64,000 nt of DNA from Escherichia coli. GTDB taxonomy: Bacteria > Pseudomonadota > Gammaproteobacteria > Enterobacterales > Enterobacteriaceae. The translations under genes and the position numbers were made by a program. Positions 1 to 63,185 of this stretch are shown here, piece by piece (position 1 is the stretch's first letter; every line of letters starts with the position of its first letter). The notes under the pieces are model-generated. The model saw only the letters and a program-made list of their open reading frames with translations. It was not told the DNA's origin and did not search any database. The stretch lies in the NCBI GenBank assembly GCA_002099625.1, contig GCA_002099625.1_4857.1; one strand, given 5' to 3'.

Positions 1-611
1 GTGATTGCGCGGTTGTAAGCCCAATCGGTAGTGAACTGTTTTTGCAGTTCAGTCCAATCGTAACCATACGCCACATACTCAGCCTGTGGTTTACTAGCAA
101 CCACGAACGGCGCGATGATTGCGCTGAGGTCAACATCCGTCACCACATCCGCCAAGTTCGGGAAGAACTTCGCAAAGCGTAAACGGAAACCACCTTGCCA
201 GGCCAAGCAACCAGGCTTAATAGTCACATCGATTAACCAGCTTTCTCCCAAATCTTTTACTGACTGGTCAACGATATCGTCGGCAACTAAAGACAAGCCG
301 TATTTCGCATTCAGAAACGGCAACAACTCAGAGAGTTTATTTACCGGGTCGGCAACGACTACCGGTATTACGTTCCTGAACAGAATTTCCATTTCGATAC
401 GGTCGTATTCGAGCGTAACGTTGCCTTTGTAGCCCTTGCCGTTCAACCCGTATAAGAGCACACGCGTATTCCGGTCAGCGCCAGGCGTTTGGACAGACTC
501 AGGGAAGCCAGTTGCAACCTGCTCCCATGTGAGTGGATTGGCCGTTAATCCGTTCTGTCGGTTAATAGCATCTAACAACATCTCTTTCGAGGGCTTATCG
601 TAAATAGACAC
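1..611 (-). CDS. hypothetical protein, 3' end beyond window edge
   Basis: Minus frame open from GTG at 611-609 to position 1, checked codon by codon. SD AGGAGG lies 5 nt upstream and overlaps the stop of the upstream gene. Absent from ORF track because no stop lies in the window. Confidence 0.5.
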   Translation of the reverse strand, partial: MSIYDKPSKEMLLDAINRQNGLTANPLTWEQVATGFPESVQTPGADRNTRVLLYGLNGKGYKGNVTLEYDRIEMEILFRNVIPVVVADPVNKLSELLPFLNAKYGLSLVADDIVDQSVKDLGESWLIDVTIKPGCLAWQGGFRLRFAKFFPNLADVVTDVDLSAIIAPFVVASKPQAEYVAYGYDWTELQKQFTTDWAYNRAI

Positions 612-621
612 CTATACCCTC

Positions 622-1419
622 CTAGTTGTTAAAGTGTAGGTTGAGGGTGCCCTGGAAGTTCGTACATTTATCGGTCAGTTGCACTGACACGACTTTCGCG
701 AACGCCGTATTTGCTCCCGGCAAGTCTGCAGGTACGCCGTCGAATACGACAGTGGCACCACGCAGGTTATACGGGGATGGGGTATCTTCAGCTACCCAAA
801 TCTCAGGAACACATTTGTTGAGTTCGATTGCCAACGCCGTGTCATCTACCTCGATACCGACCGCTAAGAGGCTCAGGAAACGAGAGATGTGGCTACAATC
901 GATGTCACGCGAATAGATATACGCCTGACCCAACTGGATGTCCTGGTGATCCGGGTACAGAAGACCGCTCAACTCTGTATTGGTTACTACTTCTGCCAGA
1001 GGTGTAGCAGGTTTCAGCTCGATGACCGCTTGACTTCGCCACTCGTGGGAAGTTTCAACAGCAACGACTGTGTGCGTCTGTCCATCAATGGGGTTATCTT
1101 CGATATCCTCAGGTAAGATAGACAGATTAAAACGCTCGTTAATCGCCGCGAGTAAGTCGTGCGTGGTTTGCACGTCCTCGTCTCCAAAGGCAACATCGCC
1201 TTTAAGGTAGTCCTCTAATGGACGACGATGGTAGTCCACAATCACTTGCGTACCTTCATCACCGCGCATCTTCGAGGTAAGGACTACCTCCGAATCACGA
1301 CCGTCTACTGACACAACCTCCGGCAGTCCGATATCAACATCGTCAAAGGTAAGCGGTGGGCTTATCTTATTCTCTTCGTTGATGAGTTTTAGCAGATTCT
1401 GTTTTGAAGTAAAAGACAT
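622..1419 (-). CDS. hypothetical protein
   Basis: 265-aa ORF; stop TAG overlaps SD of next gene (coupled). Confidence 0.6.
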   Translation of the reverse strand: MSFTSKQNLLKLINEENKISPPLTFDDVDIGLPEVVSVDGRDSEVVLTSKMRGDEGTQVIVDYHRRPLEDYLKGDVAFGDEDVQTTHDLLAAINERFNLSILPEDIEDNPIDGQTHTVVAVETSHEWRSQAVIELKPATPLAEVVTNTELSGLLYPDHQDIQLGQAYIYSRDIDCSHISRFLSLLAVGIEVDDTALAIELNKCVPEIWVAEDTPSPYNLRGATVVFDGVPADLPGANTAFAKVVSVQLTDKCTNFQGTLNLHFNN

Positions 1420-1575: not shown

Positions 1576-2004
1576 CGACTTCGACTGCTCCCATTCAGGA
1601 TAGACGAAGTTTCCATTGTGTTCTTTGTAGTGTTTGTAGAGTTCCTGGACAAGATCAGAAATCTTATCCCCGCAATCATGAAACCAACTATCCCAGCAAA
1701 AGTGCGGGAAGTCGTTCCACGAATAAGATACCTTGTCATTGAAAGCTTCCCAACTGACATACCACCAATAGCCCTTCTGCAGTTCATAGGCATCCCAGAA
1801 CTTATACCCACTAGACGTTTCGTATACCACGATAATCCATTTGACATCGTTCGTCCCTTCGTCGCAGATACCGAAAGCGTGGTCAGTGGTGTCGAACGTG
1901 TAGTCCGTCTTATAGGGTTTGTTTTTGTTGTTTATCCGAATACGTGCACCCTTCGGCATCAGAGCATGGAAAGTATCGCCGTTCAGCTTTTTGATTACGT
2001 TCAC
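1573..2004 (-). CDS. hypothetical protein
   Basis: 143-aa ORF, W/Y-rich; the overlapping 1482..1847 and plus-strand 1618..2379 ORFs are judged spurious. Confidence 0.55.
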   Translation of the reverse strand: MNVIKKLNGDTFHALMPKGARIRINNKNKPYKTDYTFDTTDHAFGICDEGTNDVKWIIVVYETSSGYKFWDAYELQKGYWWYVSWEAFNDKVSYSWNDFPHFCWDSWFHDCGDKISDLVQELYKHYKEHNGNFVYPEWEQSKS

Positions 2005-2025
2005 GACTTTATCCTCAATCGTCGA

Positions 2026-2244
2026 TTAACAGACCCACACAAGGCCGTTATTCTTTGGGCGGTCTTTAACACCGTAGGTTACTTCAACGTTGTCAATCAT
2101 TTTATCGCCGTCTTTCATTGTTTTCATGAAAGCTTTGGCTTCTGCTGCAGACATTTTCAGCAGCAGGTCAATCATGTCAGGCTTACGTTTGGCGGTGGTT
2201 TCAACAACAGGTTTGATTTCAGATTTGGAGAAGAGGTTGCGCAT
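2026..2244 (-). CDS. small hypothetical protein
   Basis: 72-aa ORF in minus operon. Confidence 0.45.
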   Translation of the reverse strand: MRNLFSKSEIKPVVETTAKRKPDMIDLLLKMSAAEAKAFMKTMKDGDKMIDNVEVTYGVKDRPKNNGLVWVC

Positions 2245-2752: not shown

Positions 2753-2805
2753 GTTAAAACTCCTTAAGATAATGGTCGATTAGATAAGAGTTAATTGTTA
2801 ACTCT

Positions 2806-2829
2806 CACCTAAGTAATATATATCTGAAA
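2806..2829 (-). promoter_or_regulatory. class A phage promoter-like motif
   Basis: Minus-strand TTTCAGATATATATTACTTAGGTG; near-identical copies at 24757, 54641 and 63146, each about 50 nt upstream of a minus gene start. Confidence 0.6.
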
Positions 2830-2849
2830 ATAATTGTAATCGGACTAGG

Positions 2850-2888
2850 CAAAAAAAGAAGAAACCCTACTCCCGAAGGAGTAGGGTA
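2850..2888 (-). terminator. intrinsic terminator
   Basis: Stem ccctactcc/ggagtaggg with cgaa loop, then T-run on minus strand; after stop of 2924..3352. Confidence 0.75.
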
Positions 2889-4190: not shown

Positions 4191-4562
4191 TTAAGGATTA
4201 ACGAACAGTCTGCCAACCTCGTAAGATGGCGGTGCCTCGGTACTTTTGCGTTCGGGGCTAATGGGGAAATCGAACACAGGTGTTTCCATAATGTCCGGCG
4301 GCATAACCCCGTCGTTCATTTCCAGAACTCGTCTGCGTACCTTGTCCCTGAACTCGGTATCCTCGCCTTGCCACAATACGGTCAGGATTTCCTCCCGTGT
4401 AAAATCCTTACGAAGCATGTATTCTAGCGCTGCATAAATGAACACTTTTTCTTCATGTAACTGTGCTTCGTATTCTTTCCTGGCAGACAACGCTTGTTTA
4501 TAAAGTTCGCGCTCCTCATGCCCAAAGAACAGACGCCGCCACCACACCATTAATTTACTCAT
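4191..4562 (-). CDS. hypothetical protein
   Basis: 123-aa ORF. Confidence 0.5.
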   Translation of the reverse strand: MSKLMVWWRRLFFGHEERELYKQALSARKEYEAQLHEEKVFIYAALEYMLRKDFTREEILTVLWQGEDTEFRDKVRRRVLEMNDGVMPPDIMETPVFDFPISPERKSTEAPPSYEVGRLFVNP

Positions 4563-4971
4563 CTTTTACCTCGTATCCATGACTACGAAAATACTCGATG
4601 GCCGCAGAACGTTTACCTACACAGGAGAGTTTTTCATAGAGTAACTCAAGGAGTGTCTTTGGTTCCCAACGCCGCTCTATGAAATAGATTAGGGCACCCA
4701 GGTTCCATCCTAACATCTTGTCACGCAGATCCGCATCTCGTCGGGCATCCCGTAGCTCATCTTCGAGTTTCCGGTTCTTAGACTGTTCCTCAGAAAGTAG
4801 TCGTGTAAGCTTACGGCGTTCTTCGAAAGATTCATCAAGATTTCTCTTCCACGCTTCTTTCGAAATTTCTAACTCAGTCTTTGATAGGCTGAGTTCCAAT
4901 TCCAGTATTTCTAATTGGCGGCGCAATTGTTTTTTCTCCTGAAACAGGCCGAACATGTTTTCTCCTTGCAA
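4555..4971 (-). CDS. hypothetical coiled-coil protein
   Basis: 138-aa ORF, E/K/R/L-rich heptad-like sequence. Confidence 0.5.
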   Translation of the reverse strand: MQGENMFGLFQEKKQLRRQLEILELELSLSKTELEISKEAWKRNLDESFEERRKLTRLLSEEQSKNRKLEDELRDARRDADLRDKMLGWNLGALIYFIERRWEPKTLLELLYEKLSCVGKRSAAIEYFRSHGYEVKDE

Positions 4972-5021
4972 TAGCCCTATCGATTCTGTTACGAACTTCT
5001 GCTAACGATAACGTTTCCCAC

Positions 5022-5342
5022 TTAAAATCCATTGCGACCTCCCTGTGCGATGTATAACGCACATTTCGCATTGAGTGCTTCGATATTAGCGATAAGTATC
5101 ATCACGCCGCCGAGTGTTCGTGGTACGCGAACTGCTTCGTACTCGCGACTTTGTGTACGGACACAATATTCATCGCCCAGGAACGCGATTTCGTAATACT
5201 CAGCACGTAACGGCACAAATGACTGTAGCAACATATCTGCGGTTTGATAGTCGTCAGTCAGTTTTCCGCCCTCGAGTAAATATTTCTGAATCTCGTGAAT
5301 GGTCAATCCCTGTAATGAAATAGACACCAGCTTCTCCTTCAT
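5022..5342 (-). CDS. hypothetical protein, start uncertain
   Basis: ORF track 106 aa. Leader motif TAATCGACCAT spans the ATG at 5342; AAGGAG plus 6 nt then GTG at 5327 is an alternative start. Confidence 0.45.
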   Translation of the reverse strand: MKEKLVSISLQGLTIHEIQKYLLEGGKLTDDYQTADMLLQSFVPLRAEYYEIAFLGDEYCVRTQSREYEAVRVPRTLGGVMILIANIEALNAKCALYIAQGGRNGF

Positions 5343-5679
5343 GGTCGATTAATAACAGTTCAGGTGGCACGTCATAGTCGATGGGTGCGGACTCCTCCAT
5401 CACGCTATACAATCGCTGATAGAACTCTCTGGAGGTTTCCAGGTGCCCTCTTGACACGTGTCTGACATGCGGTGTATTAGGATGATAAAACTCGCCGTAG
5501 GTTATCGCTAACTCGACAAACCATAGACATAGTTCTCTTGGCCCGTACCGGTTATAAAACTTTATCACCCCAACATCAAACATCTTGTTGTAATGCGGTA
5601 AATCACGATAACGAAGTTTTAGTGTACCTACACCGATGCGTTGAAGCTCGATAGAGATAGCTACGTCTATGGTTACCAT
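5254..5679 (-). CDS. hypothetical protein
   Basis: 141-aa ORF; 3' end overlaps next gene by 74-89 nt in another frame. Confidence 0.5.
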   Translation of the reverse strand: MVTIDVAISIELQRIGVGTLKLRYRDLPHYNKMFDVGVIKFYNRYGPRELCLWFVELAITYGEFYHPNTPHVRHVSRGHLETSREFYQRLYSVMEESAPIDYDVPPELLLIDHEGEAGVYFITGIDHSRDSEIFTRGRKTD

Positions 5680-5702
5680 TCACAATCACCCTTATCCGCA
5701 GA

Positions 5703-6086
5703 TCATTTAAATCCGCTGTATTCGTCAATGGTGCCGTCTTTGATGTACACGCCCGGCGTCAGTGCGACTTTACGCGGATCTTTATCAGCACGCTCGCCGT
5801 TACACTGGACATTCCATTCGTTGGTTAAACGTTCCATTTCACGACTTGCATACAGCCGCACATTCGTAACTAACTCGCTGGCTTCGCCCAGGTGCGACGC
5901 ATGAAGCACGCTGTTTTCCAGCCCGTAAAGTTTAGCGAGTAGAATCTTGTTAAGTTCTAACGCTGCTTTTGCAACGAGCGCATACCCTTGACGTTGCCCT
6001 TCTGTGCCTGCATTCAGTAACGTCAGCTGATGGTTTTTCATGTGTTCGATTGCCAGTGCTAAGTCGGTGTTCGTTGGCATTTCCAT
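5703..6086 (-). CDS. hypothetical protein
   Basis: 127-aa ORF. Confidence 0.5.
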   Translation of the reverse strand: MEMPTNTDLALAIEHMKNHQLTLLNAGTEGQRQGYALVAKAALELNKILLAKLYGLENSVLHASHLGEASELVTNVRLYASREMERLTNEWNVQCNGERADKDPRKVALTPGVYIKDGTIDEYSGFK

Positions 6087-6406
6087 TAGTATTTATCCTC
6101 ACGTTTGCTAAACTCTTCTAACATCTCGTCGTACGCATTCCTGGTATCTTTTAATCCCTGGACGGCCGCGTCATAGACGCGACGCGCAGGAGACGTAAGA
6201 TGGTAGTGTCCAATACGTTCGATGATATCGTGGCAGCGGCTAATGTGCGTGCAAAGCCTACTCGCGTTAACACCTAGTTTCGCGAGGTCGTGTCTTAACT
6301 GCAAGTTATCGGCCTGTACACGACGGATAGCGGCAGCTAATTCTCGATTTTCTTCGTACAGTTGTTTTTGTCGCTTGTTAATCAGCGCAAGTAACCAGTT
6401 CAACAT
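6086..6406 (-). CDS. hypothetical protein
   Basis: 106-aa ORF; start overlaps upstream stop. Confidence 0.5.
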   Translation of the reverse strand: MLNWLLALINKRQKQLYEENRELAAAIRRVQADNLQLRHDLAKLGVNASRLCTHISRCHDIIERIGHYHLTSPARRVYDAAVQGLKDTRNAYDEMLEEFSKREDKY

Positions 6407-6416
6407 CCTGTCCCCC

Positions 6417-6935
6417 TTAACGCTTCAGATAGATAACGTTATGGTTTTCGTACTTCGCGTCTACCCAGGAAAATTCCCAGTAGTGGCGAGGACGATCGGC
6501 GATTTTCATGTCCAGTTCCAGTATACCGTCTAAAGGTACCTGTCTGAGCACCTCTACGATGCTCTGCAGCTCGTTACGAGGCCGGTCGTGGATTAGCTCC
6601 AGATAACGCTCCAAACGCGCAGGCGTCGCTACAGTGCGAATATGAGTACGTTTATCATCGTCGTGCAGGTAAAGGAAGTTTGGTGTGCGTGGAACGTACC
6701 AGTGCCAGGTACCGATGTACGGGCCAGGCTGATAATCAGACAGTTGCTTGATTGCATTTAATACCGACGAACAACGGAAATACCAGATGTCCCATTCATC
6801 ACGAGGGAACAGTTCCGCGACTTTCACTTTCAGTGGGTCGATACTAATATCCCCCGCAGCCAATACTTCTGGGGCAACGCCAGATTCTAAAACGTTACGT
6901 TCCCGTTTGGTGTACAGGTTCATGATAATATTCAC
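6417..6935 (-). CDS. hypothetical protein
   Basis: 172-aa ORF. Confidence 0.5.
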   Translation of the reverse strand: MNIIMNLYTKRERNVLESGVAPEVLAAGDISIDPLKVKVAELFPRDEWDIWYFRCSSVLNAIKQLSDYQPGPYIGTWHWYVPRTPNFLYLHDDDKRTHIRTVATPARLERYLELIHDRPRNELQSIVEVLRQVPLDGILELDMKIADRPRHYWEFSWVDAKYENHNVIYLKR

Positions 6936-7682: not shown

Positions 7683-7706
7683 ACTGAGATAACATCTATC
7701 TGAAAT
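7683..7706 (-). promoter_or_regulatory. class B phage promoter-like motif
   Basis: Minus-strand TTTCAGATAGATGTTATCTCAGTG; related copies at 18184, 26453, 46767 and 47567. Confidence 0.55.
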
Positions 7707-7745
7707 AAAATAAAGCGTACCAGCCACCCCGAAGGATAGCTGGTA
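7704..7745 (-). terminator. intrinsic terminator
   Basis: Stem accagc/gctggt around ccccgaagg, T-run on minus strand; after stop of 7751..10768. Confidence 0.6.
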
Positions 7746-13671: not shown

Positions 13672-14055
13672 TTACGATAACTCGCCCATGTAAATTACTT
13701 CATAACCGAACCACTCACCGATTTCAATAAGGTAAGAAACTAGCAAGTGGCGATGACAGAATTTCCCCGGTGGGCAATAGCACATTAGTACGACCTCGCC
13801 CCGGCGGAGAATCTCTATCAGCTTATCAGTGTCTTCATCAAACAACCGACTAAGTTTCTGCAGGTAGCGTTTGGTATACGCAGCTTCTGCGTCGGGGCCT
13901 TTGTCAGACTTCTTGTAGTCCATCAGAAAGTCCCAGTCGGGTGCCAAATATTTCAGCCCCGACTTAACCGTTATATCCAGCTTTGGCAAATTCCGTTTTT
14001 CAGCTATCCGCCACTTCGCCAGTTGGAGCGTCCACAGCTTTACTTGCTTTGGCAT
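13672..14055 (-). CDS. DUF488-like protein
   Basis: Motif VVLMCYCPPGKFCHRHLL (C..C....CHR) and LAPDW region resemble the DUF488/YeaO family; start taken at ATG 14055 (MPKQ); overlaps 3' end of upstream gene. Confidence 0.45.
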   Translation of the reverse strand: MPKQVKLWTLQLAKWRIAEKRNLPKLDITVKSGLKYLAPDWDFLMDYKKSDKGPDAEAAYTKRYLQKLSRLFDEDTDKLIEILRRGEVVLMCYCPPGKFCHRHLLVSYLIEIGEWFGYEVIYMGELS

Positions 14056-15007
14056 TATTCGCTCTCTCTTTTTCTTTCTCCTGAAGCGCTTTAAAATGCG
14101 GTGCATATTCGCACCACTCTTCTGCTGTAAATGACGTGATAAACAGTCTTTCGGTATCTTCAGTTACCGTAAAGGTTGTGTGATTTCTTTTCGGGTCCTT
14201 AAAGTTAGCAAAAGTCGGTACGTCCAAACCCATAGCAGAAATAGCACCACCAAGAGCAGAGCACCATACCCGTCTGTAAGCATCGTTGATTTTAATCTCC
14301 CATCCCACAGACGGTGTAATACCAAGACTACGATAATTCTGCGACTTTGCCGACGGATGGGCATAAACGATGAGCATGTTATTCTCACGGTCTATCGCGA
14401 ATTCGTAGTTGTTGTAGTTACTGACCTGCACCAATCTACGAATGTCTTCCGGCAACTCCTGCCACATTTCCAGTTTCTCTTTATCCCACGCAGGTGTTAG
14501 AAGCGGTGGAACGCGGCCGGCATGATCTTGGAAATACATCAGTTCGCTATAAAGGTTCTTTAAGCGAGCGTACTCGTCTAATGTCCAATCTCCCAGCTCT
14601 AGACTATTCTCCAACGCATCTAACTTATTCCAGCCAACAACTGCATAGGCGTGGTGCTGTTTGCGTGTAATGTCGCACATCAGTTTAGCGAGGCCGTTAA
14701 CAACATTGCCTTGCTGAACCAGAGGCGACCAGCCGTTAGCGTAGCCGGCGCTAACGACAGGCGGAAAGTTCTCTTCCCCGAGCACCGCCCATGTAACACG
14801 ATCGGTTTGTGCGTGGTATCTGTCCATTAACCGTTCAACAATGGCCACACTACAAAGAATTTCCATGAAGTTCGCGTTACCTCCATTCCACATGGAGAAA
14901 TATGCAGGACGGACATGTCGTGCTTCATTGGCCGGTGCTTTGCACAACAGCTGATACATTATCCAGGTGGAATCCAACCCTGCTGAAAACGAAACGAGCT
15001 TCGTCAT
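14000..15007 (-). CDS. PP-loop ATP pyrophosphatase superfamily protein
   Basis: N-terminal SFSAGLDST matches the PP-loop SGGxDS motif (QueC, PAPS reductase, asparagine synthase class); 335 aa. Confidence 0.5.
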   Translation of the reverse strand: MTKLVSFSAGLDSTWIMYQLLCKAPANEARHVRPAYFSMWNGGNANFMEILCSVAIVERLMDRYHAQTDRVTWAVLGEENFPPVVSAGYANGWSPLVQQGNVVNGLAKLMCDITRKQHHAYAVVGWNKLDALENSLELGDWTLDEYARLKNLYSELMYFQDHAGRVPPLLTPAWDKEKLEMWQELPEDIRRLVQVSNYNNYEFAIDRENNMLIVYAHPSAKSQNYRSLGITPSVGWEIKINDAYRRVWCSALGGAISAMGLDVPTFANFKDPKRNHTTFTVTEDTERLFITSFTAEEWCEYAPHFKALQEKEKERANNAKASKAVDAPTGEVADS

Positions 15008-18213: not shown

Positions 18214-18528
18214 TTAAACCACCATCTCTAAGCGCACATACTCCTTACGGCTAGGATGTACCTGCGCCCTAATCCGATGATGCACACGGTCGATGAGTAG
18301 CGTTTCGTTTACGCGCGGAATAAACCGAAATACGTTTAACAGTAACGTGAACTCAACACCCGTCACAATATTAGACAGTGTCATTAGTTCTTCGCCGATA
18401 CCTTTAACTTCTGCAACCACGGAACGATCGTGTACCTCACCACCTAACGGGGGTGTGAACGCCCGAATAAAACGGACGTGCAGTTCCTGGTGCGTCAGTG
18501 TGGGCTCAATGGGGTTTAGGTTCGACAT
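18214..18528 (-). CDS. hypothetical protein
   Basis: Start reassigned to ATG 18528 (MSNLNP); the longer ORF track version overlaps the next gene in another frame. Confidence 0.45.
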   Translation of the reverse strand: MSNLNPIEPTLTHQELHVRFIRAFTPPLGGEVHDRSVVAEVKGIGEELMTLSNIVTGVEFTLLLNVFRFIPRVNETLLIDRVHHRIRAQVHPSRKEYVRLEMVV

Positions 18529-24339: not shown

Positions 24340-24705
24340 CTACATCACTGCAGAAGGTTTACGTGCCATGACTTTAAGTCCCGTATCTCGTACCCGGATA
24401 GGACAATTATTCATGTAATCAATGCAGGATTCAATTTTGAAGCTGTGTCGACATTTACCGTTGATGGAACGGTAGACGATTTCGTAATTCAGGCGCAGTG
24501 TATCGGCAACCCGCATTAACGTTTCAATAGTCACGGCCTTCTCACGTTCATTTTTAATCGCAGATATTTGTGACGGCGAGCAACCTACTAATAACGCAAC
24601 GTCTTTCTGCGTAACGTCCTTCGCAGTAACACGTGTAATAATGTAAGAAAGACGAACCAAAAACGCTTTCTTTGCCAACACAACTGTTTGATGTTTAAAA
24701 CGCAT
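24340..24705 (-). CDS. HTH (XRE/Cro-like) transcriptional regulator
   Basis: Helix-turn-helix signature TQKDVALLVGCSPSQISAIKN; first gene after class A promoter. Confidence 0.55.
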   Translation of the reverse strand: MRFKHQTVVLAKKAFLVRLSYIITRVTAKDVTQKDVALLVGCSPSQISAIKNEREKAVTIETLMRVADTLRLNYEIVYRSINGKCRHSFKIESCIDYMNNCPIRVRDTGLKVMARKPSAVM

Positions 24706-24756
24706 TAGAATACTCCTTTAGATTAATAGTCGATTAGAGAGTTTAGTAGTAACTCT

Positions 24757-24780
24757 CACCTAGGTAATATATATCTGAAA
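24757..24780 (-). promoter_or_regulatory. class A phage promoter-like motif
   Basis: Minus-strand TTTCAGATATATATTACCTAGGTG, followed by hairpin GAGAGTT/AACTCTC and leader TAATCGAC. Confidence 0.6.
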
Positions 24781-24821
24781 TTTAGTGGACTGGAAGCAAA
24801 AAAGCATAAGACTGTTCTGAT

Positions 24822-27130: not shown

Positions 27131-27502
27131 TTAAAACCCCGCAACGACTGCAGACATAAAGTCATGAACGACTTTACGTTGTTCTGCAAGCGGGTAGCCA
27201 AATTTAGTAATGTCGTGCATCCACCGAACCCGGTGAGTCCGACCATCGTGACTGAATGTGGAGCGCAGTACCAGGAAATAATCCGCACTGACTCGGAAAT
27301 GTAACGAGCAGCTGCCATGTTTGGCTCGCACGGTCAACTGAATACGCTTTACGCCGTCGCCTAAATATTTAGCGTCGATGTCGACCTGGTCAACCTCCGG
27401 CACAGCCCGTAAGGCTTGCGCGACGTCTTCCAGGTCCCCGTTCTTGCTCACATTAGCGCCATGGAGCGCTGCGGTACAGAGTTGAAGCTCTCGATAGAAC
27501 AT
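27131..27502 (-). CDS. hypothetical protein
   Basis: 123-aa ORF. Confidence 0.45.
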   Translation of the reverse strand: MFYRELQLCTAALHGANVSKNGDLEDVAQALRAVPEVDQVDIDAKYLGDGVKRIQLTVRAKHGSCSLHFRVSADYFLVLRSTFSHDGRTHRVRWMHDITKFGYPLAEQRKVVHDFMSAVVAGF

Positions 27503-54588: not shown

Positions 54589-54640
54589 GGTAATACTCCT
54601 TTAGCTTAATAGTCGATTGAGTTGATAGATTGTCTTCTAT

Positions 54641-54664
54641 CACCTAGGTAATATATATCTGAAA
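54641..54664 (-). promoter_or_regulatory. class A phage promoter-like motif
   Basis: Minus-strand TTTCAGATATATATTACCTAGGTG followed by hairpin GATAG/CTATC and leader. Confidence 0.6.
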
Positions 54665-54689
54665 TTATTTTTATTCAGAGTACACCCTC

Positions 54690-61734: not shown

Positions 61735-62280
61735 TCATTGAACCATACGCTGCGCGTCGTAAGACGGTGCGAGGTTCACAACACGACCATGTAGAGTTTG
61801 CTCTGCTTCGTCTAACAGGTCATCGCGTACGAGCGTCTGGCGAATGTAAAGCGTTGCCCGTATCCCCTCAGCGCTGTAAGGCGCGGTGACCATTTTGGTC
61901 TGGTAACCTTCAATCGTCACCGGAACACGCTCGCCATTACGACGAACAAAATGCTCCAGCTTACCGTAATCGTGACTGCAGACTTTAGACATGTCAGACA
62001 ATCCCGCATCGATTAAGTATTTCCAAAGACTGACGATGCCTTCTGAGCAATGTTTGTTAAGTTCACCTTCGACGACAAACTCGTACCCACCGTACGTTAG
62101 AATGTGCGTGCCTGCTGAACGACGGTCACATTCTAAAATGAACACGCCCAGACCAATCATAACCGGACGTGGGATTGTCATGACACTGGTACTAAATTGC
62201 AGCGTAGTAACCTCATCCCAAAGGGGCGATGATTTGTCGTTGCTTACACTAATAACATCTTTGAGATTGACACGTTTCAT
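61735..62280 (-). CDS. hypothetical protein
   Basis: 181-aa ORF; conserved leader TAATCGACCATTA and SD AAGGAG upstream. Confidence 0.55.
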   Translation of the reverse strand: MKRVNLKDVISVSNDKSSPLWDEVTTLQFSTSVMTIPRPVMIGLGVFILECDRRSAGTHILTYGGYEFVVEGELNKHCSEGIVSLWKYLIDAGLSDMSKVCSHDYGKLEHFVRRNGERVPVTIEGYQTKMVTAPYSAEGIRATLYIRQTLVRDDLLDEAEQTLHGRVVNLAPSYDAQRMVQ

Positions 62281-62317
62281 TATAAATACTCCTTACGATT
62301 AATGGTCGATTACATAC

Positions 62318-62346
62318 GGTTTCAGGCTAACGTAATATTTACGCTG
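62318..62346 (-). promoter_or_regulatory. class A-like promoter variant
   Basis: Minus-strand CAGCGTAAATATTACGTTAGCCTGAAACC; overlaps the 3' end of 62339..63100. Confidence 0.4.
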
Positions 62347-63100
62347 CTGGTTCTTCAGCGGTTTTCACTTCAACTGGTTTCATCAACGAGTTCGCACAGT
62401 CGAAGATAGCATCCAGGAAACCACGGAACGGCTTCATGGCTTCACGCTGGGCGTTCTGACGTTCTTCTTCAATTGCTTCTTCTTGCGCCTGAATTTCTTC
62501 AGCAGTCAGCTCTGGGTGTTCCGTCATGCTTTCTGCCAGGGTCATCACTTTCGGCTGCGCATTCAGAATCGGAATACGGCGGATGACCTTGGTGATATTC
62601 CCGAGCTTCATGCCACCCAGCATGGTATCGAACAGCGTACCGAAATCTTGCAGTGGGTCTTCGCTGATTTCCAGTACCGCCGGAGTCGCAACCAGACCAA
62701 AGGCAATGACCAATTCAACGGCAGTGTCAGTGACGTGCGCAGCGAACGGGGTGTCTTCCATCTGCAGGTAATTGTTGCCATTATAGGTCACCGGAATGAA
62801 TTTGATTTCTTCCCCTTTCTTCAGTCGCAGTGTATCGACTGCGGCTTTGTACTGAACTTCGTACAGTTCCGGTTTAACACCGTCAACGTTATCCAGTGTA
62901 AAGAGCAGGTCACCAACCGCCATACGGCGCGGCAGTTTGCGTTTGTTGATTTCGCGCAGCCAGACTTGTAAGCCGGTGAATTGAATTGGGGACAGTCTAA
63001 TTTTAAAGCCGTTGGTTGCTTGCAGGATAGCACCGTCGTCTTCGCTACGTTCGATAGAGCCATTAGCCAGAGTAAGCAGATTGATAGTTTTCATTTTCAT
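62339..63100 (-). CDS. hypothetical protein
   Basis: 253-aa ORF, acidic C-terminus; first gene after class A promoter. Confidence 0.55.
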   Translation of the reverse strand: MKMKTINLLTLANGSIERSEDDGAILQATNGFKIRLSPIQFTGLQVWLREINKRKLPRRMAVGDLLFTLDNVDGVKPELYEVQYKAAVDTLRLKKGEEIKFIPVTYNGNNYLQMEDTPFAAHVTDTAVELVIAFGLVATPAVLEISEDPLQDFGTLFDTMLGGMKLGNITKVIRRIPILNAQPKVMTLAESMTEHPELTAEEIQAQEEAIEEERQNAQREAMKPFRGFLDAIFDCANSLMKPVEVKTAEEPAA

Positions 63101-63145
63101 ATTCCTTAAGTAATGGTCAGTTAGTAAAGCAAATCATTGTTTGCT

Positions 63146-63169
63146 CACCTAGGTAATATATATCTGAAA
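63146..63169 (-). promoter_or_regulatory. class A phage promoter-like motif
   Basis: Minus-strand TTTCAGATATATATTACCTAGGTG followed by hairpin GAGCAAA/TTTGCT. Confidence 0.6.
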
Positions 63170-63185
63170 ATTATTGTAATCGGAG

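Follow-up and report, generated by a model that had tools for sequence, protein, structure and literature searches.

Comparison across related phages shows genes A and B, two consecutive minus-strand genes within a stretch of 64,000 nucleotides (hereafter the window), to be genuine protein-coding genes that share a real and conserved overlap. Gene A (5254..5679, minus strand) starts with ATG behind the Shine-Dalgarno sequence GGGTGA and encodes 141 aa; gene B (5022..5327, minus strand) starts with GTG, encodes 101 aa, and belongs to the protein family phrog_9649. The region that is read in two frames (5254..5327, minus strand) measures 74 nt and holds codons 118–141 plus the stop codon of A together with codons 1–25 of B, the frame of B being +1 relative to that of A. 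The pair displays the properties of a terminal overlap, that is, a common strand, different frames, shared nucleotides, retention in diverged relatives, and purifying selection. Taken as a whole, the arrangement is probably an evolutionarily old terminal overlap in which B is initiated independently within the weakly constrained tail of A; an unregulated overlap of this kind is the simplest reading, and A is best explained as a young gene whose run-on tail covers an older neighbour that initiates independently. In the proposed mechanism, B would be initiated at GTG 5327 through a strong and accessible AAGGAG with a 6-nt spacer, the whole initiation region lying within the 3' end of A, and ribosomes translating A would read through this region and then continue for at least 24 codons, in a frame that is −1 with respect to B, up to the stop codon.

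The window derives from a Seoulvirus, an SPN3US-like jumbo phage, and shares 93–97% nucleotide identity with its relatives. A megablast search with positions 4500..6500 returned 34 phage records at 93–97% identity, all of them Seoulvirus (e.g., Salmonella phage SPN3US, SEGD1, the SPFM series, and E. coli phage EC001), and the window corresponds approximately to the reverse complement of SPN3US 53.6–117.6 kb. In SPN3US, gene A is YP_009153424 (RefSeq tag ACQ60_gp136) and gene B is YP_009153425 (ACQ60_gp135). The major head protein of SPN3US, gp75, served as one anchor for the ordinal numbers of the two genes. Together with gp47 as a second anchor (PMC5694885), ordinal numbering would make gene A gp130 and gene B gp131.

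Nearly all genes around A and B lie on the minus strand, and the two belong to an operon of about 11 small genes between a promoter box at 7704..7687 and a terminator-like hairpin at 2887..2864 (2864..2887, minus strand), with a further terminator-like hairpin upstream of the operon (7718..7745, minus strand). The likely promoter of this operon is TTCAGATAGATGTTATCT (7687..7704, minus strand), a variant of the early-promoter box TTCAGATATATATTAC that is kept in SPN3US, SPAsTU, and pEa_SNUABM_29. A degenerate pattern covering the canonical and variant promoter boxes finds seven sites in SPN3US, two of which are the TTCAGATAGATGTTATCT variant, and none in 20 shuffles. The promoter-like variant, written as TTCAGATAGATGTTAT(C/T)T, occurs at 7687..7704 (minus strand) of the window and also at SPN3US 100813 and 109891; it is followed by neither a hairpin nor a pre-SD box, is conserved in SPAsTU and pEa_SNUABM_29, and may mark a different temporal promoter class. 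Promoters of the sigma-70 type were set aside, since the phage uses its own polymerases and a sigma-70 scan gave matches no commoner than in shuffles. An Rfam search detected no family at gathering score anywhere in the window, and a sensitive scan of 4800..5800 gave no credible match.

As far as the searches reach, gene A is a lineage-restricted gene of unassigned function that is confined to Seoulvirus and Erskinevirus. It has no match in Pfam or PHROG, and an exhaustive profile search of 1.84 billion representative proteins yielded four matches, all from Seoulvirus; the search for remote homologues that might reveal the ancestral C-terminus, made with word-indexed as well as exhaustive profile methods, likewise returned Seoulvirus proteins only. 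A distant homologue in Erskinevirus was located by synteny and then by hhalign, namely gp146 of phage Asesino (169 aa; probability 94.9%, E = 4.6e-8). Within Seoulvirus, the open reading frame is intact in 12 genomes at 41–97% amino acid identity, including SPAsTU/STsAS (50%) and pEa_SNUABM_29 (41%). Outside the overlap, substitutions between the window and SPAsTU are biased toward the third codon position in both genes (35/30/71 at positions 1/2/3 of A and 11/6/49 of B), and the same bias is found in Erskinevirus (2/1/23 for A and 3/1/18 for B), as expected under purifying selection. Gene A is therefore regarded as real, because its reading frame is kept at 41–50% identity and its substitutions concentrate at third positions. 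AlphaFold models built from shallow alignments reached a mean pLDDT of 41 for A and 50 for B, too low for interpretation or for a fold search.

The sequence-only reading had described an overlap of 74–89 nt in different frames, and both open reading frames are indeed present: that of B extends over 106 aa from ATG 5342 (5022..5342), which gives 89 shared nucleotides, and over 101 aa from GTG 5327, which gives 74. It had further suggested that the starts might be misassigned, which proved correct for the 89-nt version and incorrect for the remainder. The in-frame ATG 5' of the GTG (5340..5342, minus strand) has no Shine-Dalgarno sequence upstream and is not conserved, being ACG in both MET_P1 and JN03 and GTG in pEa_SNUABM_29, and probably does not serve as the start of B. 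By contrast, the Shine-Dalgarno sequence AAGGAG of gene B (5334..5339, minus strand), which lies 6 nt before the GTG and within the Glu-Gly-Glu codons of A, forms an AAGGAG-N6-GTG unit that is invariant in all 12 genomes aligned at the A/B junction for start placement, pEa_SNUABM_29 included. Moreover, the GTG is replaced by ATG in phage Lh1B, a swap expected of a start codon, and gene B matches the phrog_9649 profile over its full length (E = 2.9e-46; residues 2–101 on positions 2–101 of 101), the function of this family being unassigned. Because the unit is invariant, the codon is ATG in Lh1B, the upstream ATG is unconserved, and the profile covers residues 2–101, the start of gene B is placed at GTG 5327 and the overlap is set at 74 nt; the exact N-terminus of the protein would then read (M)SISLQGLTIHEIQK. 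A pattern scan of IMG/VR for further B start regions returned SPN3US itself and unrelated matches only.

A later start that would abolish the overlap altogether is highly improbable. The candidate is ATG 5237 (Met36 of the long open reading frame), which sits just beyond the stop codon of A, and the records of Proteus phage 7 and pEa_SNUABM_29 do annotate a truncated, non-overlapping B. However, residues 4–35 of the long frame are conserved at 40–53% identity in homologues, phages that lack A included: tblastn matches in Erwinia and Cronobacter jumbo phages fall in this range of identity and start at residue 4–13, and about the first 35 residues of B are conserved in homologues. In pSal-SNUABM-04 and pEa_SNUABM_4, which have no gene A, the B homologue measures 107–108 aa, its N-terminus can be aligned, and no long overlap exists; Machinavirus-like phages also possess B homologues without gene A. 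Since the N-terminus of B is conserved even where A is missing, the PHROG profile spans residues 2–101, and ATG 5237 has no Shine-Dalgarno sequence whereas AAGGAG-N6-GTG is invariant, no later start can remove the overlap. The same distribution among phages indicates that gene B is older and more widely distributed than gene A.

The overlap recurs in every A-bearing genome examined, with a length that varies as the stop codon of A drifts. It measures 74 nt in the window and in SPN3US, 77 nt in pEa_SNUABM_29, and 92 nt in SPAsTU (a range of 74–92 nt for Seoulvirus), and about 170 nt in the Erskinevirus phages Asesino and phiEaH2, in which an A homologue of 169 aa and a B homologue of about 105 aa (counted from GTG) occupy positions 540..1197 of the Asesino locus (L029) and 546..1203 of the phiEaH2 locus (L030), with a GAGGT-N7-GTG start of B at the homologous place. 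In none of these genomes does A stop before the start of B, and its open reading frame always spans the initiation region of B. This persistence across two genera, together with the fact that A never ends ahead of B, could mean that the arrangement is selected and not merely tolerated. Between the window and SPAsTU, 15 of the 74 overlap sites differ, as against 42% of sites in sequence coding for A only and 29% in sequence coding for B only, and the changes fall mostly at codon position 3 of B (eight, versus four and three at the other positions). In Erskinevirus, the tail of A is 80% identical, compared with 97% for the rest of the protein. The frame of B is therefore considered dominant and the tail of A weakly constrained, because changes in the overlap favour third positions of B and because the identity of the Erskinevirus A tail is low. 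The first shared codons behave in the opposite way, as the G-(V/L)-Y-F residues of A are conserved between genera and the first five residues of B vary. The tail of A would be a translated segment that is overprinted on the conserved N-terminal coding sequence of B.

The two open frames also invite the thought of a programmed +1 ribosomal frameshift from A into B that would produce an A–B fusion protein, for the frame of B is +1 relative to that of A and both frames are open over 74 nt. Inspection of the overlap revealed no slippery site, and no conserved slippery or stop-adjacent shift site is found there. B carries a conserved Shine-Dalgarno sequence and start codon of its own and is found as an independent gene in A-less phages, and the overlap varies in both length and sequence from genus to genus, all of which argues against frameshifting. 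The fusion was rejected for want of a shift site and because B carries its own initiation signal; its probability is regarded as close to nil.

The initiation region of B, as opposed to the overlap as a whole, stands out by its conservation. Over the 24 nt that precede the GTG, the window and SPAsTU differ at a single site, compared with about ten expected from the divergence of sequence coding for A only (P(≤1) = 4.5e-5; P(≤2) = 4e-4), and at most one of the nine A-frame third positions in these 24 nt has changed (P = 1.4e-3). This comparison shows the region to be conserved beyond the coding needs of A and far above the surrounding A sequence. At the same time, the RNA at the B initiation region is predicted to have little structure, as 199 of 200 shuffles fold better (z = +2.28), and a conserved fold or pairing over the Shine-Dalgarno sequence of B was looked for around the B start and none was seen, so the Shine-Dalgarno sequence and start codon do not appear to be sequestered.

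These data bear on the proposal, also raised by the sequence-only reading, that the overlap is selected and regulated, so that translation of A would control B either by coupling (unmasking) or by occlusion. In its favour, the overlap persists in Seoulvirus and Erskinevirus with the A frame always covering the B initiation region, and two other overlaps of this phage have unchanged lengths of 56 and 55 nt across three diverged phages. However, control of this kind is unlikely. The stop codon of A (5254–5256) lies 74 nt downstream of the B start at 5327 in the window, and this distance drifts between 74 and 170 nt among genomes. Termination-reinitiation operates over distances shorter than these 74–170 nt, and an A stop in such a drifting position falls outside its range. 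A region that is less structured than nearly all shuffles and has no conserved pairing leaves nothing to unmask, and the B homologues of Machinavirus-like phages function without any A, which speaks against a B controlled by A. The proposal of a regulated overlap thus found no backing in stop-to-start distance, RNA structure, or frameshift signals. Independent initiation of B remains the favoured account: given an open and strong site, a stop codon 74–170 nt downstream of the start, and no visible frameshift signal, ribosomes would load de novo on the site of B regardless of termination on A, and the overlap would be a tolerated by-product rather than a control device.

A separate feature of the junction is a short motif, here termed the pre-SD box, with the sequence TAATCGACCAT (5341..5351, minus strand), which lies inside gene A at the codons Leu-Ile-Asp-His without a promoter or hairpin upstream; the motif ends with the first two bases, AT, of ATG 5342. 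The motif (with at most one mismatch) occurs at eight sites in the window against 0.94 expected, a number reached in none of 100 shuffles. Its consensus is TAATCGACYAT, and about ten gene starts per genome are preceded by it, mostly in early-promoter leaders; in SPN3US, for instance, eight of the ten coding-strand sites are located 24–32 nt before an annotated start. The sequence-only reading had placed this leader element exactly over the start of B. The motif is real and tied to the start region, but the real start is GTG 5327, and the exact box, separated by 1 nt from AAGGAG, spans −24 to −14 relative to this codon, that is, 14–24 nt upstream of it and beside the Shine-Dalgarno sequence.

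In its canonical context, the box forms part of a leader cassette that consists, in order, of TTTCAGATATATATTAC, TAGGTGA, a hairpin whose stem covaries between copies, TAATCGACYATTA, TAAGGAG, and ATG. About six cassettes are present per Seoulvirus genome, and others occur in Erskinevirus and Machinavirus; in the window, copies are found on the minus strand at 2753..2845, 24700..24790, 54590..54680, and 63090..63185, with a weaker copy at 62280..62340. The copies read TTTCAGATATATATTAC(C/T)TAGGTGA, then the hairpin, TAATCGACYATTA, a Shine-Dalgarno sequence, and ATG, and their hairpin stems differ yet stay complementary (GAGAGTT/AACTCTC, GATAG/CTATC, and GAGCAAA/TTTGCT). The cassette probably represents an early promoter with a structured 5' UTR behind it. 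The B site agrees with the cassette in having box, Shine-Dalgarno sequence, and start codon within 24–32 nt; the TTCAGATATATATTAC box expected 30–40 nt upstream of the pre-SD box is absent, and no hairpin lies upstream of 5351, whereas canonical copies carry one. The sequence upstream of the box at the B site is coding sequence of A and is unconserved in SPAsTU.

Four box copies of SPN3US have no promoter, namely the B site, 114783 (window 2018..2028), 167591, and 224196. The second of these (2002..2028 of the window, minus strand) has the layout of the B site, with TAATCGACGAT, T, GAGGAT, 6 nt, and GTG; the TAA of TAATCGACGAT is the stop codon of an upstream 72-aa gene, and the GTG starts a 143-aa gene. 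Both sites share the 24-nt spacing, the GTG start, and the order of box, 1 nt, Shine-Dalgarno sequence, and 6 nt. At SPN3US 167550..167622, a terminator-like hairpin (CCCTGCGG...CCGCAGGG followed by TCCTTTT) is succeeded directly by TAATCGACTAT, a Shine-Dalgarno sequence, and ATG, and no other copy agrees as well with a box that acts as a promoter or defines a 5' end. The box matches no Rfam family. A role as a translational enhancer that pairs with 16S rRNA was tried and rejected, because the best Watson-Crick run against E. coli rrsH is 5–6 nt, no better than for shuffled motifs.

Among the features of the A/B pair, the box copy embedded in A alone might conceal something new. At the B site, the box is identical in SPAsTU although the A protein is only 50% identical there, and the window and SPAsTU also agree at those of its sites that are synonymous in the A frame (P = 0.015, calculated for the box by itself). 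In pEa_SNUABM_29, the leader has TATTCGACTAT and the B site has decayed to TAATTAACCGT, so the covariation between leader and B site that was looked for in this phage was not seen; in Asesino, the box is absent at the B site. Because of this decay and absence, a role of the box at the B position is not universal. Within the favoured account, the TAATCGACCAT box probably tunes the expression of B as in early-gene leaders.

In a different role, TAATCGACCAT would be an operator, a site of RNA processing, or a promoter inside A that is recognized by a phage RNA polymerase; B would then be expressed from its own 5' end or controlled apart from A, and the need to keep the box in place would explain the conserved nucleotides inside A. 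This role is possible but doubtful. In its favour, the box is self-contained (11–13 nt) and always lies 24–32 nt before a start, with or without an early promoter; it is conserved in the leaders of three genera, and in SPN3US the copy at 167591 directly follows the terminator-like hairpin, 31 nt before the next start codon. The conserved synonymous sites inside A point the same way, and short self-contained promoters are known for the non-virion RNA polymerases of AR9 and phiKZ, as are unexplained 5'-UTR motifs in AR9 early transcripts (PMC7598289, PMC5312081). However, the box is lost at the B site of pEa_SNUABM_29 even though a related box is kept in the leaders of that phage, it is missing at the B site of Asesino, the gap between it and the Shine-Dalgarno sequence is not constant (1 or 5–7 nt), and only about ten copies exist per genome. 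A bolder version, held with comparable hesitation, sees in TAATCGACYAT a cis-acting element not described before, which could serve as an operator, as a site of RNA processing or stability, or as a short promoter recognized by a phage multisubunit RNA polymerase. In this version, it would set the expression of some ten mostly early genes, and the A/B overlap of Salmonella Seoulviruses would be maintained because the element and the ribosome-binding site of B must sit in A. If this were true, the fate of the A mRNA would be coupled to the expression of B.

The A/B pair is not unique in this phage, although long same-strand overlaps are rare in it: the SPN3US annotation contains five of at least 50 nt (113, 74, 56, 55, and 50 nt). 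The longest annotated one in SPN3US NC_027402.1 (34997..35109, 113 nt) joins a DNA helicase gene to the next hypothetical gene. Three further long overlaps had been pointed out from the letters of the window alone, and all are present and match annotated SPN3US RefSeq overlaps of 56, 23, and 55 nt. The first (14000..14055, minus strand; 56 nt) joins a 335-aa gene to a DUF488-family gene; SPN3US, SPAsTU, and pEa_SNUABM_29 all have it at this length, with both frames conserved. The DUF488-family gene (13672..14106, minus strand) has a longer open reading frame from an upstream ATG at 14106, and its conserved start is the codon of MPKQVKLW at 14055, which is GTG in pEa_SNUABM_29. The overlap of 55 nt (27448..27502, minus strand), between a 202-aa and a 123-aa gene, has the same length in four genomes, and both frames are kept in SPN3US, SPAsTU, and pEa_SNUABM_29. 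The 23-nt overlap (18506..18528, minus strand), between a 105-aa gene and the next gene (starting MSNLNPI), has a start codon whose position is not kept in SPAsTU, where an overlap of at least 20 nt remains. By these alignments, the overlaps at 14000..14055 and 27448..27502 are as conserved as that of A and B, and that at 18506..18528 is kept less exactly.

The reference annotation already contains the arrangement, as SPN3US RefSeq NC_027402.1 lists at the same locus the coding sequences 111915..112340 and 112267..112572, with 95–98% protein identity, an identical overlap of 74 nt, and an identical GTG start. Both products are listed as hypothetical proteins only; no discussion of the overlap was found in the literature searched, in which the SPN3US papers make no mention of A or B. 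Other records treat the pair unevenly. Among the ten Seoulvirus GenBank entries compared, SPN3US, EC001, and Lh1B keep both genes with the 74-nt overlap; JN03 keeps A only; SPFM4, MET_P1, SPLA1a, and SaP7 keep only a full-length B; SPAsTU has a shortened B and no A; and Proteus phage 7 and pEa_SNUABM_29 have A with a truncated B. One of the nine non-SPN3US GenBank records compared annotates neither gene. One partner is dropped or truncated in seven of the ten Seoulvirus records examined and, for gene B, in both Erskinevirus records, where it is truncated (Asesino) or omitted (phiEaH2). Because the comparative evidence shows both genes to be real, the overlap should be kept in annotation with the start of B at the GTG.

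Long out-of-frame overlaps are usually taken as annotation errors, and the A/B pair shows that the opposite can hold. It also illustrates how an overlap may originate in a large genome without obvious size pressure, as a lineage-restricted young gene extends into its older neighbour, with an end point that wanders between 74 and 170 nt. Less ordinary is an early-leader box that is embedded in coding sequence and remains constant at sites synonymous for A. If the box proves regulatory, it would offer a handle on expression control in jumbo phages that encode their own RNA polymerases, whose promoters and UTR signals are poorly known.

Several known systems provide a measure for these findings. 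Conserved 5'-UTR motifs have been described in early transcripts of the jumbo phage AR9, and AT-rich early promoters in jumbo phages that encode RNA polymerases (PMC5312081, PMC7598289). The leaders described here resemble those systems in that the AT-rich box TATATATTAC fits the class of early promoters used by virion RNA polymerases (PMC7598289) and is followed by a conserved UTR element; they differ from AR9 in that the sequences are unrelated and that one copy of the UTR element lies inside coding sequence without a promoter. Short coupling overlaps of 1–4 nt (ATGA, TAATG) likewise join same-strand operon neighbours, and many overlaps of 1, 4, and 8 nt are annotated in SPN3US; unlike in these, the A frame closes 74 nt past the B start, and reinitiation therefore cannot explain the translation of B. 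Terminal out-of-frame overlaps are established in phages, for example that of the 3' end of gene A over the 5' end of gene K in phiX174 (PMC8227390). The present pair resembles overlaps of the phiX174 A/K type in that both genes occupy the same strand and one frame is older and dominates the substitutions; in contrast to them, it resides in a 240-kb genome without obvious compaction pressure, the part that is overprinted encodes a C-terminal tail under weak constraint and no new functional protein, and its end drifts between 74 and 170 nt. The A/B pair is, in sum, a real and conserved terminal overlap of a known kind with the start of B fixed at GTG.
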